DNA of 64,000 nt from contig CACMQN010000007.1 of assembly GCA_902615855.1 (NCBI GenBank), positions 3,525 to 67,524 on the forward strand, read 5' to 3'. This stretch comes from an uncultured Candidatus Actinomarina sp. (lineage in GTDB: Bacteria > Actinomycetota > Acidimicrobiia > Actinomarinales > Actinomarinaceae). The notes under the pieces are model-generated. The model was not told the DNA's origin and made no database searches. It saw nothing but the letters and a program-made list of their open reading frames with translations. This document shows, piece by piece, positions 10,204 through 54,816 of the stretch. The translations under genes and the position numbers were made by a program. Positions within the stretch are counted from its first letter, which is position 1; each line of letters opens with the position of its first letter.

Positions 10204-11721
10204 TTATTCTTCTTTTTTCTCCAATGTACTTACAAAGGCTTCAACAGCTGTTTTTAATTCCTCTTCAGGTAATTCACCTGTTGTTTTTATTGAATTAATA
10301 ACATCTGAATGTCTTGTTTTAACAAAATCAATCAAATCTAATTCGGTTTGAGGGATGTCAGCAGGATCAACTACATCTAAAAATCCCTCTGTTACTGCAT
10401 AGAGTGAGATGACTTGCTCTTCCATTGGCACTGGTTGATATTGTGGCTGCTTTAATAATTCGACAACTCTTCTTCCTCTATCAAGCTGTGCTTGTGATGC
10501 AGCATCCAAGTCTGATCCAAACTCTGCAAAGGCCTCTAACTCTCTAAACTGTGCAAGGTTAATTCTTAAAGGTCCTGAAACTTTCTTCATAGCTTTAGTT
10601 TGTGCAGCACCACCCACCCTTGATACTGATGTACCTGGGTTTACAGCAGGTCTAACACCAGAATAAAAGAGTTCTGATTCCAAATAAATCTGTCCATCTG
10701 TAATGGAAATAACATTTGTTGGGATGAATGCCGATACGTCTCCAGCTTTTGTTTCTATGATTGGTAGTCCTGTAAGTGAACCGCCACCTAACTCTTCACT
10801 AACTTTTGCACAACGCTCTAATAGCCTTGAGTGAAGATAGAAAACGTCACCAGGATAAGCCTCTCTTCCAGGAGGTCTTCTTAGTAGAAGTGATATCTGA
10901 CGATATGCGATGGCTTGTTTTGATAGATCGTCAAAAACAATTAATCCATGCTCACCGTTATACATCCAATGTTGGCCAATTGCTGACCCAGCATAAGGAG
11001 CATACATCTGCAATGCAGCTGCAGCTGAGGCGGGTGCGTTTACAATTACTACTTTATCTAGAACACCCTCTTGCTCAAATCTCTCTACTACTTCTGCAAC
11101 AGTTGATGATTTTTGACCAATAGCAACATAGATACATTTAACATCTGTGTCTTTTTGATTGATTATTGTATCAACTGCAACAGCAGTTTTTCCAATCTGT
11201 CTATCACCAATAATTAATTCTCTTTGTCCACGACCAATTGGAATCATTGAGTCAATAGCTTTAATACCAGTTTGTAGTGGCTCCCCAACGGGTTGTCTTT
11301 CAACAACAGATGGGGCTTGAAGTTCTAATCGTCTTCGTTCAGTAAATTCAATAGGTCCTTTTCCATCAATTGGATTTCCTAGGGGATCAATAACTCTTCC
11401 TAAAAAGCCATCACCAACACCAATTGACAACACCTCTCCAGTTTGTTTTACAGGCATGCCCTCTTCTATGTGATTTGAGTCACCCATCAAAACAACACCG
11501 ATAGAATCCTCTTCAAGGTTAAGTGCTACTCCAACAAGTCCCCCTGGGAATTCAAGAAGCTCTGATGCCATAACATTTTCTAAGCCTTTAACTCTTGCTA
11601 CTCCATCAGCTACCGCAGAAACGTAACCAACAAGATCGTCTTTTACAGAATCCTGCCAATCACCTAGAGTCTCTTTTAATGAATCTGATATTTGTTTTGC
11701 ATCAATATTAAATTCGCTCAA
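10204..11721 (-). CDS. atpA: F1 ATP synthase alpha subunit
   Basis: P-loop '[10 protein letters not shown]' and conserved length. Confidence 0.98.
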
Positions 11722-33342: not shown

Positions 33343-34320
33343 TTATAAAACGTTTTCACCCATAAAAATTGCAGACACAGAATCATCCGCAAAAATAGAT
33401 GTTAGCGCCGTTGCAATAATAGAAGAAACGGAGAGAATGTTTACATTTCCAATTTTTTCTATATTCCCATTTTGTTTAAGAGTATCTGTGACAACTATTT
33501 CTTCGATAGGAGTCTCTTTAAGTGTCTCTACGCTTTCATCTGAAAAAATACCATGTGTTGCAGCTACGTTCACAGATTTTGCACCTCTTTCAATCAGAGC
33601 CCTTGATGCAGCTGCAATTGTTCCACCTGTATCAATTATGTCATCAAACAATATTGCATGTCGATCTTCAACATCTCCAATAACGGTAAATGCCTTAACT
33701 TCGTTATGTACCTTTGGATCTCTTTTCTTGTGTACAAAACCAACATAAGCCTCCATGTTTTTAGCAAAAGTTGTAGCTCTTCTCACTCCTCCAGCGTCCG
33801 GGGAAATAATTGTTATAGGCTCTTGAAATTTTTCTTTAAAGTAATTTACAAATAATGGCATAGCCGTCAAATGATCAAAAGGCTGATCAATAAATCCCTG
33901 AATCTGTTGAGTGTGTAAATCAATTGAGACAATTCTATCGGCCCCAGCTGCAATAAATAAGTCAGCAACTAATCGAGCAGATATAGGCTCTCTAGGCAAT
34001 GCTTTTTTATCCTGTCTTGAATATGGGTAAAACGGAAGTACAGCAGTGATTCTTTTTGCTGAGGCTCTTTTTAAGGCATCTACAAGTAAAAGCTGTTCCA
34101 TAATTGTAAAGTTAACTTGGCCTGAATGGCTTTGCATTACAAAACAATCAGCACCTCTGACACTTTCTTGTAAACGTATATAAATTTCCCCATTAGCAAA
34201 TTGAGTTTTATCTACTTCGGCAAGCTCTGTTCCAAGTTCTTTTGCGACTTTATCGGCTAATTCAGTATTTGATGAACCGGAGAATAAAAGCATTTTCTTT
34301 TTGCCAGCTCGCTCAATCAT
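33343..34320 (-). CDS. prs: Ribose-phosphate pyrophosphokinase
   Basis: 'GEI.I...ESVRG.D', 'DLH..Q.QGFF' type, and the PRPP loop 'LFDDIIDTGGT'. Confidence 0.95.
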   Translation of the reverse strand: MIERAGKKKMLLFSGSSNTELADKVAKELGTELAEVDKTQFANGEIYIRLQESVRGADCFVMQSHSGQVNFTIMEQLLLVDALKRASAKRITAVLPFYPYSRQDKKALPREPISARLVADLFIAAGADRIVSIDLHTQQIQGFIDQPFDHLTAMPLFVNYFKEKFQEPITIISPDAGGVRRATTFAKNMEAYVGFVHKKRDPKVHNEVKAFTVIGDVEDRHAILFDDIIDTGGTIAAASRALIERGAKSVNVAATHGIFSDESVETLKETPIEEIVVTDTLKQNGNIEKIGNVNILSVSSIIATALTSIFADDSVSAIFMGENVL

Positions 34321-35690
34321 TTCTTTCCTTTTTTATGTTTTCGATTCATATAACCCTCAATATTCTTTTGGTCGTTTCTTTCAATACCAAGAGCACCGGG
34401 AGGAACATCTTTTGTAATTACAGATCCAGCACCCACCATAGCTCCCTCACCAATAGTCACAGGAGCGACAAGCATTGTATCTGAACCTACAAATGCATTT
34501 TTCTTTATTTCAGTTTTATGTTTTTCTTTACCGTCATAATTAACAGTTATTGCTCCAGCTGAAAAATTTACATCTTCTTCTAATTCTGCGTCTCCAACAT
34601 AAGCGAGATGGGGTACTTTACTGCCTTTTCCAATTTTTGAATTTTTTGTTTCTGCAAAAGCTCCGACTTTTACATTTTCATCTAGAATAGATCCTTTTCT
34701 TAAATGAGCATAAGGACCAATTGTTGCCTTGCCTTTTATTTCAGCTTCATCGATTACTGAAAATTGGACGACAGAGCCTTCTCCTATTTTAGAATCATTA
34801 ATTATTGAGTTTGGTCCAATTACACAATCTTTCTCAATATTTGTTGTTCCTGTTAAATGACAATTAGCGAGGATTCTCGTTCCTGAGGCTATCTTTACGG
34901 ATTTATCTATATATGTTGAATTTGGATCCTGAAAATATACGCCATTTTCCATGTGAAATTCAATTAGTTCTTTTCGAAGCGTGTTCTCAACATCATTCAG
35001 CTGACTCATGGAATTTATACCTTGGATTGAATCTTCATTTACTTGTACTATAACCCTTTCAAGATTGTTTTGAAAAGCTATATTTATTAAATCTGTAAGA
35101 TAAAACTCTTTTTGATTATTTGAACTTTCTAAACTTCCAATATTTGAATTCAAGAAATTTATATCTATGCAATATATTCCAGAATTAATTTCATTGATTT
35201 GTTTCTCAGTTTCATTCGCATCTGATTCTTCAATTATCTTTTCAAACTCTTCATTGTTTTTTACAATTCTTCCGTACCCAAACGGGTTTTGAACTTTTGC
35301 TGTAATTAACCCAATTGCAGCTTCATTAGCTATGACATCATTTACTAATTTATCTAAATCGTCCTTTCTTATCAGAGGAACATCGCCAGGAATCACAACT
35401 AAGTATTGACTTTGGTCACTATCAAACTCACTGCTTTCTAATAATGTAGAAATTGCATGACCTGTACCAAGTTGTTCTTTTTGTATTACAGGAATAAAAG
35501 ACTCTAATAAAGTTGACGATACTTTTTCTGATTGGTGTCCAACAACTACATATTTACTTTCAAAATGACCAATTGCTTCTTGAGCATAATCTATCATTGG
35601 AATGCCTAATACATTATGGAGAACTTTTGGAAGAGAGGACTTCATTCTTTTCCCTTTACCAGCAGCTAAAATTACACCTGAAATACTCAT
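34317..35690 (-). CDS. glmU: Bifunctional GlcNAc-1-P uridyltransferase / GlcN-1-P acetyltransferase
   Basis: 'GVILAAGKGKRM' and C-terminal hexapeptide repeats. The start is trimmed to ATG 35688-35690 because the longer ORF runs through the tRNA gene. Confidence 0.92.
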   Translation of the reverse strand: MSISGVILAAGKGKRMKSSLPKVLHNVLGIPMIDYAQEAIGHFESKYVVVGHQSEKVSSTLLESFIPVIQKEQLGTGHAISTLLESSEFDSDQSQYLVVIPGDVPLIRKDDLDKLVNDVIANEAAIGLITAKVQNPFGYGRIVKNNEEFEKIIEESDANETEKQINEINSGIYCIDINFLNSNIGSLESSNNQKEFYLTDLINIAFQNNLERVIVQVNEDSIQGINSMSQLNDVENTLRKELIEFHMENGVYFQDPNSTYIDKSVKIASGTRILANCHLTGTTNIEKDCVIGPNSIINDSKIGEGSVVQFSVIDEAEIKGKATIGPYAHLRKGSILDENVKVGAFAETKNSKIGKGSKVPHLAYVGDAELEEDVNFSAGAITVNYDGKEKHKTEIKKNAFVGSDTMLVAPVTIGEGAMVGAGSVITKDVPPGALGIERNDQKNIEGYMNRKHKKGKK

Positions 35691-35698
35691 TTCATTAT

Positions 35699-35773
35699 TG
35701 GCTGGGGGAGAAGGACTCGAACCCTCAACGTTGGGACCAAAACCCAATGTGTTGCCAATTACACCATCCCCCA
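35699..35773 (-). tRNA. tRNA-Gln (anticodon UUG), CCA encoded
   Basis: Manual fold: acceptor TGGGGGA/TCCCCCA, D stem GTGT/ACAC, anticodon stem TTGGG/CCCAA with loop TT-TTG-GT, T arm GAGGG-TTCGAGT-CCTTC, discriminator G, CCA. Confidence 0.9.
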
Positions 35774-35788
35774 TTTCTTGTTTTAATT

Positions 35789-42879: not shown

Positions 42880-44067
42880 TTAATTTAAGATTTTTGAGAC
42901 TATTGATTCTCCAATTGCTAAAGAAGCAGTTGCTGCAGGACTTGGTGAATTAAGTACATGTAAAGAATTTTCTCCTTCTTCAAAAAGAAAATCATCAACT
43001 AAATTCCCTTCTTTATCAACAGCTTGGGCTCTTACACCAGATGGAATTTGTTTAATATCTTTTAGGTCTACTCCATTAATTAATTTTTGAATCTCTTTTA
43101 CAAAGAGATTTTTGTTTAATGATCTATACATTTCGGAAATTCCAGTCTTGAAATATTTTTTTCCAAGCTTGAGCATTCCTGGGAAAGTTAGAACTTTAGT
43201 CAAATCAACAAAATTAATATCTGTCCATTTATAACCTTCTTTTGAAAAAGCTAATACTGCATTTGGTCCAGCTTCAATGTCACCATTTGCTGTTCTTGTT
43301 AAATGTATTCCAAGAAATGGAAGATCTGGATCAGCTAATGGATAAATCATATTATTTAATATTTTGTCTTTAGTGTTACTTATTTTGTAATATTCTCCCC
43401 TGAAAGGAATTATTTTTACGTTTGGTGACATATTGTCTAATTTTGCTATTTCATCTGAAAAGAGACCTGCACAATTAATCAAAAATTCACAGTTGTATGT
43501 ATATTTATTTCCCTTAATAGATTTCAAACCATTGTTATTTTCAATTTCTTTTATTTCTTCGATATATTTTATTTCTCCACCCATGTCTACAAAATCTTTT
43601 GCGTATGCCTGAACTACTTCTTTATAGTCAACAACCCCGGCCTGAGGAACAAAAAGCCCATTTAATATAACTGAGTTTGGTTCAATAGATAGAAGTTCAT
43701 CATTTTGAACAATTTTTACACCTTTCATTTCTAAATCAATACTTCTTTTATATAAATTCTCTAATTTAGAAATATCATTATCAACTACTATCTTTCCTTC
43801 TTGGCGAAAGTTAATATCTTTCTTTTGTAAATATTCAATAAGCAATTCTCTACCTCTCAAAGAAAGCACTGACTTACTTGAATTAGGCTTATAGTAAATA
43901 CCTGAATGGATGACTCCTGAATTACGTCCAGATTGATGGAGTCCTGGCTCTCTTTCTTTCTCGAGAACTACAACACTTACATTTTGTTTTTGTAAGTGAA
44001 GAGCTGTAGACAAACCAACGATTCCAGCTCCAATAATTGCATAATCATATGTATTATTCAAATTCAT
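42880..44067 (-). CDS. lhgO: FAD-dependent L-2-hydroxyglutarate oxidase-like dehydrogenase
   Basis: 'YDYAIIGAGIVGLSTA' and 'LEKE...HQSGRNSGVIHSGIYY'. Confidence 0.65.
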   Translation of the reverse strand: MNLNNTYDYAIIGAGIVGLSTALHLQKQNVSVVVLEKEREPGLHQSGRNSGVIHSGIYYKPNSSKSVLSLRGRELLIEYLQKKDINFRQEGKIVVDNDISKLENLYKRSIDLEMKGVKIVQNDELLSIEPNSVILNGLFVPQAGVVDYKEVVQAYAKDFVDMGGEIKYIEEIKEIENNNGLKSIKGNKYTYNCEFLINCAGLFSDEIAKLDNMSPNVKIIPFRGEYYKISNTKDKILNNMIYPLADPDLPFLGIHLTRTANGDIEAGPNAVLAFSKEGYKWTDINFVDLTKVLTFPGMLKLGKKYFKTGISEMYRSLNKNLFVKEIQKLINGVDLKDIKQIPSGVRAQAVDKEGNLVDDFLFEEGENSLHVLNSPSPAATASLAIGESIVSKILN

Positions 44068-44069
44068 TT

Positions 44070-44410
44070 TGGTGGAGGTGCGGGGAGTCGAACCCCGGTC
44101 CTTTTAAGCTACCCAACAGCTTCTCCGAGCGCATCTGATGAAATACTATTGAGAGAGTCACCAGAAACAAATTCTCAATAGTTTCTACCTTAAATCTTAG
44201 AAGTTAGCCGGTAATCTAACTTAGCATCCCACATTTCGACGCCGATACTGTCCGAGGTGGGAGCCCCGATAGTCGACGAGCAGCAATTAAGCTGCTACGG
44301 CCAATTTAGGTTTGGCAGTTATCTTTTTTTTCCTACGTTTTTAATGAGGCCCTAGGACCCTCAGCTCGCTACTGAGAGGCTCGCTTCAAAGTCGAAGCCA
44401 GTTCACCCCC
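44070..44410 (-). ncRNA. ssrA: tmRNA (ssrA)
   Basis: The 5' end is GGGGGTGAACTGGCTTCGAC. The 3' end is GGGGTTCGACTCCCCGCACCTCCACCA. The acceptor stem has a G3:U pair. The internal tag frame GCC AAA CCT AAA TTG GCC GTA GCA GCT TAA lies at 44287-44316. Confidence 0.92.
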
Positions 44411-44418
44411 ATATCACT

Positions 44419-44447
44419 ATTATGCCTTTACAATAGTTATTAGCCAA
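44419..44447 (-). promoter_or_regulatory. Candidate ssrA promoter: -35 TTGGCT, 17-nt spacer, -10 CATAAT, 8 nt before the tmRNA 5' end
   Basis: Read on the minus strand immediately upstream of the tmRNA 5' GGGGG. Confidence 0.4.
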
Positions 44448-44461
44448 TACTTATTTATTAT

Positions 44462-45109
44462 ATGAAAATTGATAAACAAACTTTTGATTTAGACGAAGAA
44501 TTAAGTATCTCATTAGATTTTGAGGATAATGATGGTTTAATATTTGTACCCAAAAATGTAAGTGTAGAGATAAAAATTGTAAACTATTTTGGAAAAATTG
44601 TTATTAATAATTTATCTATAAATCATGTTGAAGATGAACTCTCATTGTCAAAAGTTGGATTGGAGCAAAACCTTAATACTCTAGACCTTAAACTTCTCGA
44701 TAGATTTTTATTTAAACAATTAAGTGATAAAGCAACTTTTAATTATTCACCATTTGATTCCTTTTTGGAATATGATTTTTCTGTTTATGAAAAATCCAGA
44801 AGAGCAAGTGATCTTGATTGGTCTATGTTTGCATCCCTCTATATTTTTGCTTGTAATGTCATTCCCGAATCAATAAAAGTTGAGCTAACTCTTGCAAAAT
44901 ATTTAAGAGTTTCTGAAGAAGTTTTTAAAAGACTCATAAAAAAGATTCCAGACAAAATATTTAGAAAAACAGGACACCTTGAATCTAGAGGGGGTAATTT
45001 AACTTTCGATGCTGAAGAATTAATAAAGAAAAATCTTAACGACACTCAGGCAAAATTATTTGAAGAAAGTCCTTTTTTAAAATTTCACTCAGGTTCTGAT
45101 TTAGTCTGA
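44462..45109 (+). CDS. Hypothetical protein (215 aa, no recognised motif)
   Basis: Long ORF in an otherwise uncovered interval. No family assignment is possible by eye. Confidence 0.45.
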   Translation: MKIDKQTFDLDEELSISLDFEDNDGLIFVPKNVSVEIKIVNYFGKIVINNLSINHVEDELSLSKVGLEQNLNTLDLKLLDRFLFKQLSDKATFNYSPFDSFLEYDFSVYEKSRRASDLDWSMFASLYIFACNVIPESIKVELTLAKYLRVSEEVFKRLIKKIPDKIFRKTGHLESRGGNLTFDAEELIKKNLNDTQAKLFEESPFLKFHSGSDLV

Positions 45110-45528
45110 GCTCTGCTCACCATAGATATAACTTTATTAACATCAATTTCCCATATTTCTCTGGATGTGAATCCTGCTTCCTCCCAAGTGACATCTTTTG
45201 ATCTTCCATAGGGCTTACCTGAATACCTATTTGATAAATAATCTATATGGTCATTAGCGACTGAATCTTGAACTATTTTTTTCACATAACCTCTTATTTC
45301 CCAGCATGTATACATGTCAGTTGGATGGAATATAACAAGTGAAATATTTGGTTCCTTTCTAATGTTTTCTGTTTTTTTTCGTCCCTGTTCTGTATTTATA
45401 AGGATTTTGTTTTCTTTGTAGTCAACCCACATTAGATGGTTTTGAATTTCGTTTTCGTTAATTTTGGTAGCTAACGCACAAAAAGCATTGTTCTCTATCG
45501 CTTGTTTAAGTTCATGAGGAAGTTGCAT
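45085..45528 (-). CDS. Pyridoxamine 5'-phosphate oxidase (PPOX)-family flavin/F420-binding protein
   Basis: About 147 aa with the split-barrel pattern ('CALAT......P....MW......I.INT..GR.K..N...'). Confidence 0.5.
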   Translation of the reverse strand: MQLPHELKQAIENNAFCALATKINENEIQNHLMWVDYKENKILINTEQGRKKTENIRKEPNISLVIFHPTDMYTCWEIRGYVKKIVQDSVANDHIDYLSNRYSGKPYGRSKDVTWEEAGFTSREIWEIDVNKVISMVSRAQTKSEPE

Positions 45529-45558
45529 ACACCTTCATTTTAAGTAAAAATAATTAGT

Positions 45559-46131
45559 ATGGCATTTATTAAATTATTCAAATTTGAGGATTCAACCGGC
45601 CTTCTGAAAAAAGAATATGAGAAAGGACTTAGAAGAGCTGGAAGAATTTGGAATGTACTTACAATTCAATCACAAACCCCTGAGATCTTAAGAGATTCAA
45701 TGCGTCTATATAATTCAACAATGTTTGGAAACTTAGAAATATCTCGTTTCAATAGAGAACTTCTAGCAGTAGTTACTTCAATTTCAAATGAATGTGAATA
45801 CTGAATACGCGCACATTTATACGATCTCCGGTCGGAGACAAACGATCAAAAACTAATTGATGAAATTGCTAGTGATTGGAAATCAAGCAGATTAACAAAG
45901 GAACAAATTGCTTTATGCTTGTTTGCAGAAAAACTAACATTGACACCTGGAAAGATTACCGAAATAGATTACCAAGAATTGCAAAATAATAATTTTGACG
46001 ACAAAGCTATATCAGAGATAGTTCAGGTAATTTCATACTTTAACTATATAAACAGAGTTGCTGATGGACTTGGGCTAGAACCTGAAAAGTTTATTGACAA
46101 AAAAGGTTATAAAAAAAATCTTGATCATTAA
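45559..46131 (+). CDS. AhpD/carboxymuconolactone decarboxylase-family peroxidase-related protein with an in-frame UGA (candidate selenocysteine) at 45802-45804
   Basis: The two tracked ORFs (45559-45804, 45919-46131) share a frame, and the only stop between them is this TGA. Read through, the motif is 'SISNECEY-U-IRAH', matching family motif N-x-C-x-Y-C-x-x-x-H. Total length is about 190 aa, normal for the family. Confidence 0.65.
45825..45838 (+). promoter_or_regulatory. Candidate bacterial SECIS apical hairpin (TCTCC-GGTC-GGAGA), starting 20 nt after the UGA
   Basis: 5-bp stem and a GGUC loop in a locally GC-rich patch. The position fits the usual window downstream of a Sec UGA. Confidence 0.4.
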
Positions 46132-46156
46132 TTGACTTTCCCTAGAATTCTTATAA

Positions 46157-47146
46157 ATGAAAATTAATCCTACGTTCTCTTTATTTACAGGTTTAATTCT
46201 TTCTTTTACAGCATTTTATTTAGTATCTTCAAATATCCAATTTTCATATAACCAATTAGTTTCTTTAGATATTGTAGATGTTGAAGATGTTGAAGATGTT
46301 GAAGATGTTGTAAGTGAAGATGAAACAAAAATGAAATTAGATGATCCAAAACTTAACATGGATTCTCTAATTCATGAAGAACCAAATCTGAAAGAAATGG
46401 AAAAAGATATTGATCCTTTAACTATTGAGAAAGAAATTACTTCAGAAAATGAAATAAAAGAAATAAAAAGTAATTTACCTGAAAGTGATGGAGCAGAAAT
46501 AAATTCTACCTATTTTTCTATCTATAAAACAAACGAAGAAGTCATTGACAATAATGCTGTTCCTAATATAGATATGAAAAATGGTTGCTTAATGGAATAT
46601 TCCTTAAGTGATGAAAAATTATGGTATTCCCCAAATGAACAAGATAGCTACAACAGTAGATTCTATAACATTTCTATTCAAGTTGAATCAGGATTAAATT
46701 TAGATCCAGACTGCCTATCCAATATGATTTTGGGCATTTTAAACGACCAAAGGGGTTGGTCTACAATAGAAAATATAAATTTTCAATTAGTAAATTCAGA
46801 ATATGCAGATCTTAATGTTATTTTTGCAGAGCCGACAACAGTTGATGAACTGTGTTATCCGCTCCAAACTAATGGGATTTATTCTTGTAGAAATGAAAAA
46901 AATGTTGTAATAAATATGTTTAGGTGGTTATCTGGAGCAAAAGATTTTGGTACAGATCTAAGTACATATCGTATTTATTTAATCAACCATGAAGTTGGGC
47001 ACTATCTTGGATGGGGACATACAGATTGCCCATCTGAAAACGCTATTGCGCCTGTAATGATGCAACAATCAAAATCAACAAATAGTTGTATTCCCAATGG
47101 TTGGCCAATATATGAAAGAATTAAATTACTTTACAGCACGCCTTGA
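46157..47146 (+). CDS. Membrane-anchored DUF3152-like zinc-metallopeptidase-motif protein
   Basis: N-terminal TM, an acidic region with a (VED)n repeat, and a C-terminal 'LINHEVGHYLGWGH'. Confidence 0.6.
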   Translation: MKINPTFSLFTGLILSFTAFYLVSSNIQFSYNQLVSLDIVDVEDVEDVEDVVSEDETKMKLDDPKLNMDSLIHEEPNLKEMEKDIDPLTIEKEITSENEIKEIKSNLPESDGAEINSTYFSIYKTNEEVIDNNAVPNIDMKNGCLMEYSLSDEKLWYSPNEQDSYNSRFYNISIQVESGLNLDPDCLSNMILGILNDQRGWSTIENINFQLVNSEYADLNVIFAEPTTVDELCYPLQTNGIYSCRNEKNVVINMFRWLSGAKDFGTDLSTYRIYLINHEVGHYLGWGHTDCPSENAIAPVMMQQSKSTNSCIPNGWPIYERIKLLYSTP

Positions 47147-47617
47147 TTCTTCGGTGTTGATAATAGAAATGTTTGATTCAGAATTTAACATTTTAATATT
47201 TGGAACGACACCTCTACTTTGAATCCAGCAGATCGAACTTAAGACTATCATTACGCCTATCAACCCAATACTAAGGGGGTGATTAGATACTGTATTTTCT
47301 ATTCCTCCAAAAAAATTACTTATTGCTAATGATCCAATAAAAAAGCTATAAAACTTTAACAATATTTTTTGAGCGTATACTTCTTCTATATATCTTGCCC
47401 AAAGCGCCAGTAATGTTATTGATAAAGAGGTAATCCAGACTACTCTACTTGAATTGAACCAAGAAGCTGTTGATTGCACTGCATACTCTAATCTCAAGAT
47501 CCCTGCAATGGTATTTGGAGCTAAAGCTAAAATAACAGTAATTAATCCTGATATTGAGGCAATTACTACGTTTATAGACTTAAAGTTTAAAGAATTTATA
47601 TAAATGTTTTTTTCCAT
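47126..47617 (-). CDS. Hypothetical membrane protein (about 4 TM)
   Basis: Hydrophobic segments only; no motif. Confidence 0.45.
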   Translation of the reverse strand: MEKNIYINSLNFKSINVVIASISGLITVILALAPNTIAGILRLEYAVQSTASWFNSSRVVWITSLSITLLALWARYIEEVYAQKILLKFYSFFIGSLAISNFFGGIENTVSNHPLSIGLIGVMIVLSSICWIQSRGVVPNIKMLNSESNISIINTEESRRAVK

Positions 47618-47753
47618 GTCATATTATGTATTAATTTAAGGTGTTAAACAAGAGTTTTTTTAAAATAATTGGTGCCAGCCAAAACAACTAAATTGTATAT
47701 TAATTATTATATTTATTTTTTTTTATTTCAACTATTTTTATAACTTTTAAAGT

Positions 47754-48677
47754 CTATATTTCAACCGATTTATCACCAGATAGGATTTTTTTAATATTAG
47801 CAACTGTATCCATTCCAGCTTTAAGTTGGGCTTCAAAAGTTGATGCTCCAATATGCGGAGTAGTTGTTAAATTTATATCTAGATATGCATCTGTATTTAT
47901 AGGTGGTTCATTTGAATAAACATCTAAACCTACTCCAAATATTCTTTTAGACTTTAGTAGTTCAATTAAATATTCCTCATCAATTACGTTACCACGTGAA
48001 GTATTTACAACTATAGAATTATCTTTAAGTAAATCCAGTTTCTCTTTTGAAATAAGATTTTCTGTTTCTTTTGTTTTAATTACATGTATTGAAACTACAT
48101 CAGATAATTGAAGTAATTCATCAAGTTCCTTTTTTTCTTCAGTTCCATGCCATTCAGTAACAAAGGGGTCATAAAATATAATCGACATTCCAAAGCTCTT
48201 CATTCTCTCGGCAACTAATTGTCCTACTTTGCCAAATCCAACAATCCCCATTGTTTTTCCACTAAGTTCAATACCTAAAAATTCAGATCTATCCCATTTT
48301 CCATCTTTGACATTCTTATCAGCGAGGCTTATTCTTCGTGATGCGTTAATTACTAATGCGACAGTTAGTTCAACTACTGAGATTAAGTTTGCTGTAGGAG
48401 AATTTGTTACAGCAATATTTTGAGATTTAGCAAACTCTGTATCGATATTGTCTACCCCAACTCCACACCTTGCAATTATTATTAATTTTTTTCCATATTT
48501 TAAGATTTCTTTTGTTAATTTAGTTGAACTACGTATTACTATGATTTCTGAATCTTGAATATGTTTTTTAAGATCTTTATGTTTTGTTAATGAAGTAGAT
48601 ATATCTACACAATCACCAATTTTATATAATTCTTCCACAACTTGTTTGTTTAAAGTATCACAAATTAATATTTTCAT
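47754..48677 (-). CDS. D-isomer-specific 2-hydroxyacid dehydrogenase (short SerA-like, no ACT domain)
   Basis: NAD motif 'GIVGFGKVGQLVA' and 'TPHIGAST'. Confidence 0.8.
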   Translation of the reverse strand: MKILICDTLNKQVVEELYKIGDCVDISTSLTKHKDLKKHIQDSEIIVIRSSTKLTKEILKYGKKLIIIARCGVGVDNIDTEFAKSQNIAVTNSPTANLISVVELTVALVINASRRISLADKNVKDGKWDRSEFLGIELSGKTMGIVGFGKVGQLVAERMKSFGMSIIFYDPFVTEWHGTEEKKELDELLQLSDVVSIHVIKTKETENLISKEKLDLLKDNSIVVNTSRGNVIDEEYLIELLKSKRIFGVGLDVYSNEPPINTDAYLDINLTTTPHIGASTFEAQLKAGMDTVANIKKILSGDKSVEI

Positions 48678-53719: not shown

Positions 53720-54816
53720 TTAATCCCTGTCTACGCCATTTTAGATACTCATTTATAAATATGTTAATATCTCCATCTAAAACTGATTGTATATTTCCTA
53801 CTTCAATATTTGTTCTTGAATCTTTGACTTGCTGATAAGGCTGCATTACATACGACCTTATTTGCCTTCCCCATCCAGCTTCTACTTGTTCCCCTCTTAT
53901 TGAATCGAGTTTTTTTAATTTTTCCTGTTTTTCCTGGATGATTAATTTTGATTTTAGAAGACCTAATGCACGAATTTTGTTTTGTAACTGTGACCTTTCT
54001 GCCTGACATGCAACAACGATACCTGTTGGAATATGTGTAGCTCTAACAGCTGAATCTGTAGTATTCACATGTTGTCCTCCTGCTCCAGATGACCTATAAA
54101 CATCTATACGAATATCATCATCATTCAGTTCATAGTCATCAGAATCTTCAATCAATGGAATAACATCTACACCAGCAAAACTTGTATGTCTTCTTTTATT
54201 ACTATCAAATGGGCTGATTCTTACCAATCGATGAACCCCTCTTTCACTTTCTAAATTTGCATATGCTCTAAAGTTGTCGACTCTAATAGAGCCAGACTTT
54301 ATTCCTGCTTCTTCCCCTGATGAAATTTCTTCAATTTCATATTTCATATCATTGTCATCTAGAAATCTTGTGTACATTCTTAATAATATTTCCGCCCAAT
54401 CATGAGCATCTACACCACCAGCACCTGCATTAACTGTAAGTACTGCCGAATGATTATCAAACTCTTCCGAATAGAGTGATTCTTCTTCTAAGTCTAGAAT
54501 TTTTTGCTCTACTTCACTTAGTTGATTTTTTAATTCATCTAATTCAGTTATATTATCCTTACTTAATTCTAAAAGTTCTTCAAGATCTTTAATTTCAATA
54601 TCTATAACCTCTAGCAAATTGACTACTTTCTCAATACTCGATGCATTTTTAACTAAATTTTGAGCATTTGGATTTGATGACCAAAAGTTTTCTTTGGAAA
54701 TAACTTTGTTAATTTCTAAAAGTTGAACTTTCTTATTTTCAAAGTCAAAGATACTCCTTAGCCGAAGTTATTCTATCTTTAAAATCTACAACCTTATTTA
54801 TTAATTCTTTATACAT
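53712..54816 (-). CDS. prfB: Peptide chain release factor 2 (requires a programmed +1 frameshift)
   Basis: Frame 0 is 'MYKELINKVVDFKDRITSAKEYL' and ends at CTT TGA. The +1 frame continues 'DFENKKVQLLEIN...' into the tracked ORF. 'SPF' and 'GGQHVN' are present. The joined length is 367 aa. Confidence 0.93.
54744..54759 (-). promoter_or_regulatory. RF2 autoregulatory frameshift site AAGGAG-TAT-CTT-TGA-C
   Basis: The internal SD-like AGGAG (54754-54758) lies 3 nt before CTT TGA C. This is the canonical arrangement. Confidence 0.9.

Follow-up and report, generated by a model that had tools for sequence, protein, structure and literature searches.

Introduction

AhpD-like selenoproteins entered the literature with the Sargasso Sea study of 2005, which introduced an 'AhpD-like protein, COG2128' with 27 sequences and presented its SECIS element in Fig. 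3 (PMC1088965). The GOS study of 2008 counted 299 selenoproteins from 37 samples under 'AhpD-like 1, COG2128, CxxU', which ranked fourth in abundance among the prokaryotic selenoprotein families of GOS (PMC2398784), and a 2026 review carries the entry 'AhpD-like protein, TIGR01926, CxxU'. Among solved structures, D. radiodurans DR_1765 (6k40), 2oyo, 3c1l, 2pfx and 2prr are full-length homologs of the protein analyzed here (E = 1e-24 to 1e-15, about 190 aa). They share its N-x-C-x-Y-C-x-x-x-H core but lack a SECIS and carry Cys as the second redox residue where the present protein has Sec, and where the Sec clade has the motif FNYINR they have FNMTNR or FNLTNR. A D. radiodurans mutant with the AhpD-like gene deleted is sensitive to H2O2, and its complementation needs the CxxC cysteines (reviewed in PMC8945050). 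AhpD of M. tuberculosis (TIGR00777) has the CMD/AhpD fold family and the signature E-x11-C-x2-C-x3-H in common with the present protein; it is a disulfide reductase for AhpC with weak peroxidase activity and is recycled by lipoamide proteins (PMC8945050), whereas the gene described here has no adjoining ahpC.

The best comparison for the RNA element is the SECIS of E. coli fdhF, a hairpin in the coding region after the UGA with a GGUC tetraloop and a short G+C-rich upper stem, as here. Counted from the U of the UGA, the loop occupies nt 22-25 in fdhF and nt 29-32 in the present hairpin, and the long lower stem of fdhF contrasts with the mere 5 to 7 pairs that make up the Actinomarina element. 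The fdhF sequence used for this comparison matches the fdhF gene of 5,419 E. coli genomes with 100% identity.

Here we analyzed a 64-kb stretch of DNA, referred to in its entirety as the window, and conclude with a probability of roughly 0.93 that 45559-46131 (+) is a single Sec-encoding gene with a SECIS element, belonging to Candidatus Actinomarina, a marine bacterium of high abundance. The gene is like 'AhpD-like 1' of Zhang & Gladyshev (COG2128/YciW, TIGR01926) in HMM, CxxU motif, habitat and sequences; the papers on that family leave the organism unnamed, whereas the NECEYU type is here tied to Candidatus Actinomarina. A count over the GOS supplementary file gave 164 for NECEYU and 122 for ECEYUIRAH, the first occurrences standing under '#AhpD-like 1'; the string NECEYUIRAH is present as well, and one GOS read starts with MAFIKLFKFEESSGLLKKEYEKG (MAFIKLFKF start). 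The Sargasso supplement contains NECEYU 10 times and ECEYUIRAH 7 times. Since the same sequences are found in both sets, the selenoprotein was already known. An earlier note on this DNA had mentioned AhpD-like selenoproteins from marine metagenomes, and the two supplements indeed hold the same lineage. The family was described in 2005-2008 together with its CxxU motif and its SECIS, no new biology is opened, and the only increment over prior work is that NECEYU-type reads are assignable to Actinomarina. Candidatus Actinomarina thereby becomes the organism of origin for much of the 'AhpD-like 1' selenoprotein set of the Sargasso and GOS studies.

Results

One reading frame with a single UGA codon

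The gene and its catalytic codons have the following positions in the window.
45559..46131, + strand: probable selenoprotein gene for an AhpD-like 'peroxidase-related enzyme' (TIGR01926 / Pfam CMD), 190 codons plus TAA
45757..45759, + strand: Glu67 codon GAA, the E of the AhpD signature E-x11-C-x2-C/U-x3-H, invariant in alignment A3
45793..45795, + strand: Cys79 codon TGT, first (putatively resolving) position of CxxU, TGT or TGC in 78/78 TGA loci
45802..45804, + strand: in-frame UGA, codon 82, probably read as Sec, second redox position of C79-E-Y-U82, a conserved column
45814..45816, + strand: His86 codon CAT, supplying the H of the AhpD signature, conserved to 90% or more in A1 and invariant in A3

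Between the ATG start at 45559 and the TAA stop at 46129-46131, reading of the frame gave one stop, the TGA at 45802-45804. The ORFs 45559-45804 (81 aa, TGA-ended) and 45919-46131 are in a common frame, in agreement with the earlier note, which had taken the TGA to be the sole stop between them. The same note had expected a read-through protein of about 190 aa with VVTSISNECEY-[UGA]-IRAHLYDL; the translation is 190 aa long and includes VVTSISNECEY*IRAHLYDLRSET. From the sequence we infer that Sec is inserted at codon 82.

Profile scores were computed with Cys substituted at the UGA. The whole read-through protein scored 131.4 bits against TIGR01926 'peroxidase-related enzyme' (curated cut-off 81.8), in an unbroken match of residues 13-176 to profile positions 12-176 of 178 that spans the UGA, and 31.6 bits against Pfam CMD PF02627 (cut-off 23). 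The score against TIGR00777, which describes true AhpD of the M. tuberculosis type, was 16.2 bits and thus below the cut-off of 191.95, so the read-through protein is no AhpD orthologue. Scores below the cut-off were also obtained for NF041238 AhpD_rel_CFYUT (52.1 bits, cut-off 175) and for NF053654 YciW-related (seleno)proteins (21.7 bits, cut-off 310), both of which are related selenoprotein families distinct from the family of 45559-46131. The best solved structure was the AhpD-like 6k40 (E = 1.3e-24), in which NRCVYCAVSH aligns with NECEY-[UGA]-IRAH, and the fold of the read-through protein is fixed by such sequence matches to solved AhpD-like structures. The proposed membership in the AhpD/CMD family is thus confirmed by TIGR01926, PF02627 and the 6k40 match.

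The catalytic signature reads E67-x11-C79-x2-U82-x3-H86, with AhpD spacing and U in place of the second C. E67, N77, Y81 and H86 are invariant in homologs in alignment A3, with H86 at 90% or more in A1. That the UGA replaces the second redox Cys, as had been suggested, holds because this column is Cys in Cys-form homologs. In M. tuberculosis AhpD the residues are Glu118, Cys130, Cys133 and His137, and the nucleophile is the second Cys (Cys133), activated by His137 and Glu118; Sec82 presumably occupies the place of this nucleophilic Cys. A Sec82 selenolate would then attack an oxidized substrate, either a peroxide or an oxidized peroxiredoxin-type partner, Cys79 would resolve the intermediate to give an intramolecular selenenylsulfide, and a cellular reductant would recycle the selenenylsulfide. 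We propose for the AhpD-like protein both this chemistry, on a peroxide or a disulfide, and its redox partners.

A conserved hairpin downstream of the UGA

Downstream of the UGA, within the coding sequence, the following elements were located.
45825..45838, + strand: putative SECIS core hairpin, 5-bp stem UCUCC/GGAGA with a GGUC tetraloop at 45830-45833, from fold and covariation
45823..45839, + strand: possible hairpin extension, pair G45823-C45839 below a bulged A45824, as read from the sequence

The hairpin TCTCC-GGTC-GGAGA at 45825-45838 is present as the earlier note had described it, with its first base 20 nt after the last base of the TGA, and its GGUC loop begins 25 nt after the UGA. 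The loop distance range of bSECISearch is reportedly 16-37 nt, and the 25-nt distance is inside it. Bacterial SECIS elements have been described as a stem-loop right after the UGA with a small G-containing apical loop (PMC1088965). The hairpin agrees with this description, the G at alignment column 29 being invariant, and it is conserved at a fixed distance from the UGA and with covariation, so that its SECIS-like nature was correctly recognized. In a scan of the 64-kb window, only 45559-46131 had a hairpin with a GGUC or GGUU loop and a stem of at least 4 bp after an in-frame TGA. Rfam, which is without a general bacterial SECIS model, gave no match to the hairpin at gathering or permissive thresholds.

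The single-sequence fold of 45802-45865 (about -6 kcal/mol, z = -0.07) was no better than that of shuffled sequences and is uninformative, and the support for the hairpin therefore rests on comparative analysis. For this we aligned, without gaps, 79 sequences (75 distinct) over the 48 nt that begin at the UGA. In the helix formed by columns 21-27 with 34-40, 93.1% of cells were paired, compared to 21.9-47.2% in slid controls with the 3' arm moved by 1-3 columns. Thirty cells were changed on both sides of the helix, a number reached in 0 of 500 shuffles; many of these changes are clade-inherited, so the independent covariation events are few. Compensatory changes included CUC...GAG to UUC...GAA, which is Leu-to-Phe on one side and synonymous for Glu on the other, and ACC...GGU to AUC...GAU, which is accompanied by Val to Ile.

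The Actinomarina helix is one pair higher and shorter. Columns 24-28 pair with 33-37, which makes five pairs, and the lower three (21-40, 22-39 and 23-38) that are kept in other phyla are lost. For most Actinomarina orthologs RNAfold adds a U-A and a G-C pair below the bulged A (fold of L002), and this G-C pair may partly replace the lost lower pairs. The hairpin encodes D-L-R-S-E-T, with codons that are rare in the window (CTC 5.5% of Leu, CGG 0.6% of Arg and TCG 4.5% of Ser; window G+C 33.4%). Among 11 Actinomarina sequences, third positions were variable at 160 of 185 sites, and the sole invariant run of at least 9 nt in the gene was positions 271-281 (window 45829-45839), that is, the loop and 3' arm. 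The single synonymous stem change found in Actinomarina, CTC to CTT, retains a G-U pair.

Selenocysteine machinery and proposed decoding of the UGA

Acting as a bacterial SECIS, the hairpin at 45825-45838 would recruit SelB-GTP-Sec-tRNA(Sec) to the ribosome, and the UGA at 45802-45804 would then be read as Sec in competition with RF2. Binding of SelB to the hairpin is probable on this reading. ARAGORN found no tRNA-Sec in the 64-kb window or in 60 related loci, and the RNA genes in the window were tRNA-Gln and tmRNA only. Searches by tblastn of the window and 80 loci (20-kb) with E. coli SelA, SelB and SelD queries returned nothing at E = 1e-3 and, at E = 10, weak matches only, none of them within the window. 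A preprint that is not peer-reviewed reports selA, selB, selC and selD in 84/84 complete Actinomarina genomes, calls the Actinomarina selB divergent, with scores below threshold, and predicts about five selenoproteins per genome (10.64898/2026.04.03.716425). The AhpD-like protein is not named in this preprint, and its supplement has no MAFIKLF, peroxidase or carboxymuconolactone entry (10.64898/2026.04.03.716425). The locus analyzed here provides independent data in support of the preprint's claim that the streamlined Actinomarina lineage uses selenocysteine. It is conceivable, though doubtful, that the minimal SECIS (5 bp, GGUC, three lower pairs lost) is read by the divergent SelB, and that this gene makes up most of the 'AhpD-like 1' signal and is a main cause for the retention of the whole Sec pathway in a streamlined genome of 1.1 Mb.

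Of the competing explanations, the one that survives best is SECIS-independent read-through by a near-cognate tRNA (Trp or Cys), in which the hairpin would only slow the ribosome or compete with RF2. The failure to find Sec machinery in the window, the weakness of the Actinomarina hairpin and the below-threshold selB of the preprint would all be compatible with it. We nevertheless regard it as very unlikely, since the UGA takes the place of a catalytic Cys within a redox motif, the classic mark of Sec, and since with Trp in this place the redox chemistry would be lost. In addition, the hairpin has the offset and the small G-containing loop of a bacterial SECIS, with GGUC as in fdhF, and the genus is reported to have selA, selC and selD.

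Conservation of the UGA and of the downstream coding region

Returning to Sec as the preferred reading, we read the codon column in the DNA of the best 80 related genome loci. In 78 of them the homologous column held TGA, always three codons after TGT or TGC. The TGA loci came from at least 6 phyla (Actinomycetota, Acidobacteriota, Chloroflexota, Marinimicrobia, Latescibacterota, Planctomycetota and others) and included 11 Actinomarina single-cell or metagenome-assembled genomes. Cys occupies the column in PDB 6k40 and 2oyo, in the proteins P0072 (NECYYC), P0044 and P0048-52, and in the TGC locus L040. The earlier note had asked whether the UGA column lines up with Cys in homologs, and it does so with the second Cys of CxxC in 6k40, P0072 and L040. 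The single TGC locus, L040 (codon at 10244), has lost the first Cys (ACT, Thr) and reads N-S-T-R-Y-C.

N-S-T-R-Y-C is also the sequence of the other Cys members closest to the Sec clade (P0044 and P0048-P0052), and together with L040 these look like 1-Cys variants. In the N-S-T-R-Y-C members D-Y-R-D-E-V (Leu to Tyr) breaks the hairpin, a loss that is expected because the SECIS is no longer needed. A different substitution was seen in P0065 (L082:5001-5582 and L083:638-1219, two independent assemblies), which has AGA (Arg) at the Sec column, reads N-R-C-H-Y-R-T-L-A-H and still has a SECIS-type hairpin, GACCTCCGGGCTGAGGTC. Sec seems to have been changed to Arg recently here, and the redox site should be lost with it; P0053 has R at the Sec column as well.

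In 10 Actinomarina orthologs (73-90% identity) the 103 codons after the UGA were free of stops and indels, and substitutions there were mostly at third positions (for L001, 13, 2 and 35 at codon positions 1, 2 and 3). The absence of stops and indels and the third-position excess imply that the downstream half is translated and under purifying selection. Further disruptions of the pseudogene type, for which a check had been proposed, were thus found in none of the 10 orthologs. It follows that a pseudogene, in which a nonsense mutation had struck a Cys-type AhpD-like gene and the downstream part was decaying, is a highly improbable reading. It could draw on the calling of 81-aa and 70-aa orphan ORFs without Pfam match on longer contigs and on the related lineage with a changed codon (AGA) at the UGA column, but it is contradicted by the retention of the TGA column in 78/80 loci from many phyla, by the 103 intact codons with their dominant third-position changes, and by the TIGR01926 alignment crossing the UGA unbroken.

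Just as improbable are two separate small genes of 81 aa and 70 aa. The gene is so called in L084-L087, and a TTG start is possible at 45919, but the intervening 114 nt are in frame and conserved as coding, one HMM and one PDB alignment cover both parts, and neither fragment by itself matches Pfam.

The TGA codon itself recurred in four metagenome assemblies that are independent of one another, TARA Oceans samples among them, and in which the 573-nt gene differs by 1-4 nt. An identical 81-aa product has entries in 249 blocks of the assembly collection, some of them from TARA Oceans metagenomes. TGC or TGT in place of TGA, which the earlier note had wanted looked for, did not appear in any of the four assemblies. 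An error of sequencing or assembly, with TGC, TGT or TGG as the true codon, is a general possibility for any lone read-through stop, with nothing specific in its favor, and is excluded by the TGA in these independent assemblies of different samples, as well as by the 249 blocks and the 11 Actinomarina genomes.

TGA as a stop codon and the calling of the gene in public assemblies

TGA ends 10 of the 48 long ORFs of the window. One of the genes ending in TGA is glmU (34317-35774, -; TIGR01173, 515 bits), whose terminal TGA overlaps the prs ATG, and at about 54750 (-) lies the RF2 +1 frameshift site AAGGAG-TAT-CTT-TGA-C. The glmU terminus and the RF2 site confirm that TGA is a genuine stop here, as had been stated on first inspection. 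In the prfB frameshift region (~54730-54760, -), frame 1 ends in SAKEYL* and the next frame continues DFENKKVQLLEINK; prfB is upstream of an M23 peptidase gene and of ORFs sized like candidate ftsE and ftsX.

The gene is called in two ways in public data. On longer contigs (L084-L087) it is split into two orphan ORFs of 81 aa and 70 aa, whereas short contigs have given full-length database proteins with W at the UGA (P0001-P0037). For one W protein, P0063, we checked the contig DNA directly and found the codon to be TGA. As the W proteins have TGA in their DNA, the W is a gene-calling artefact, and these proteins were apparently translated under code 4 on short contigs. The W at the UGA column is the one observation that would speak for a reassigned code, with TGA meaning Trp or Gly in Actinomarina; the chance of this is negligible, because the W proteins are untranslatable under code 11, and because the TGA column is also found in high-GC phyla that use the standard code. 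The TGA-ended ORFs, the glmU stop and the RF2 CTT-TGA-C site exclude it. Where RF2 works and the UGA is nevertheless conserved, as in this lineage, some recoding device is required.

For the selenoprotein gene, the value of the assignment is mainly one of annotation, as public assemblies keep miscalling it. Selenoprotein genes are stored as Trp-containing proteins in large protein collections, and with either split or Trp calls the family and redox function of the gene are lost.

Genomic context

The genes on either side of the selenoprotein gene are listed below.
45085-45528, - strand: PPOX/F420-type oxidoreductase-like gene, divergent, 30 nt from the selenoprotein gene
46157-47146, + strand: ORF of a DUF3152 gene, beginning 25 nt downstream of the selenoprotein gene

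The closest loci (73-90% identity, syntenic) were from Candidatus Actinomarina (OCS155) single-cell and metagenome-assembled genomes, with the same tmRNA and tRNA-Gln nearby. Other neighbors encode hypothetical proteins and a serA-like gene, and no peroxiredoxin or ahpC was found among the neighbors of the selenoprotein gene. The neighbors are conserved only within Actinomarina and hence give no functional clue.

The PPOX-like gene and the selenoprotein gene point away from each other, with only 30 nt (45529-45558) between their start codons, so either both promoters overlap coding sequence or the mRNAs are leaderless. Promoter and terminator scans gave numbers of sites no higher than in shuffled sequence. 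In the DUF3152 ORF at 46157-47146 (+), three tandem copies of GATGTTGAA at 46276-46300 encode V-E-D-V-E-D-V-E-D. The DUF3152 protein has a hydrophobic N-terminal stretch, and the repeat lies near the N-terminus in a region that is poorly conserved among Actinomarina genomes. The tmRNA at 44070-44410 (-) is of the one-piece type with the tag AKPKLAVAA; in other Actinomarina genomes the tag is AKPKLALAA or AKPKLAIAA.

The region ~42880-48677 showed mosaic ancestry when compared with L001-L010. The best matches of the AhpD-like gene were L001-L003 (88-90% aa), and those of the serA-like right flank were L001-L003 and L005 (70-72%), while the left flank, with a 215-aa hypothetical protein and an L-2-hydroxyglutarate oxidase, was closest to L008/L009 (91-95%), to which the AhpD-like protein is only 75% identical. 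This pattern suggests a recombination breakpoint near 45.1-45.6 kb.
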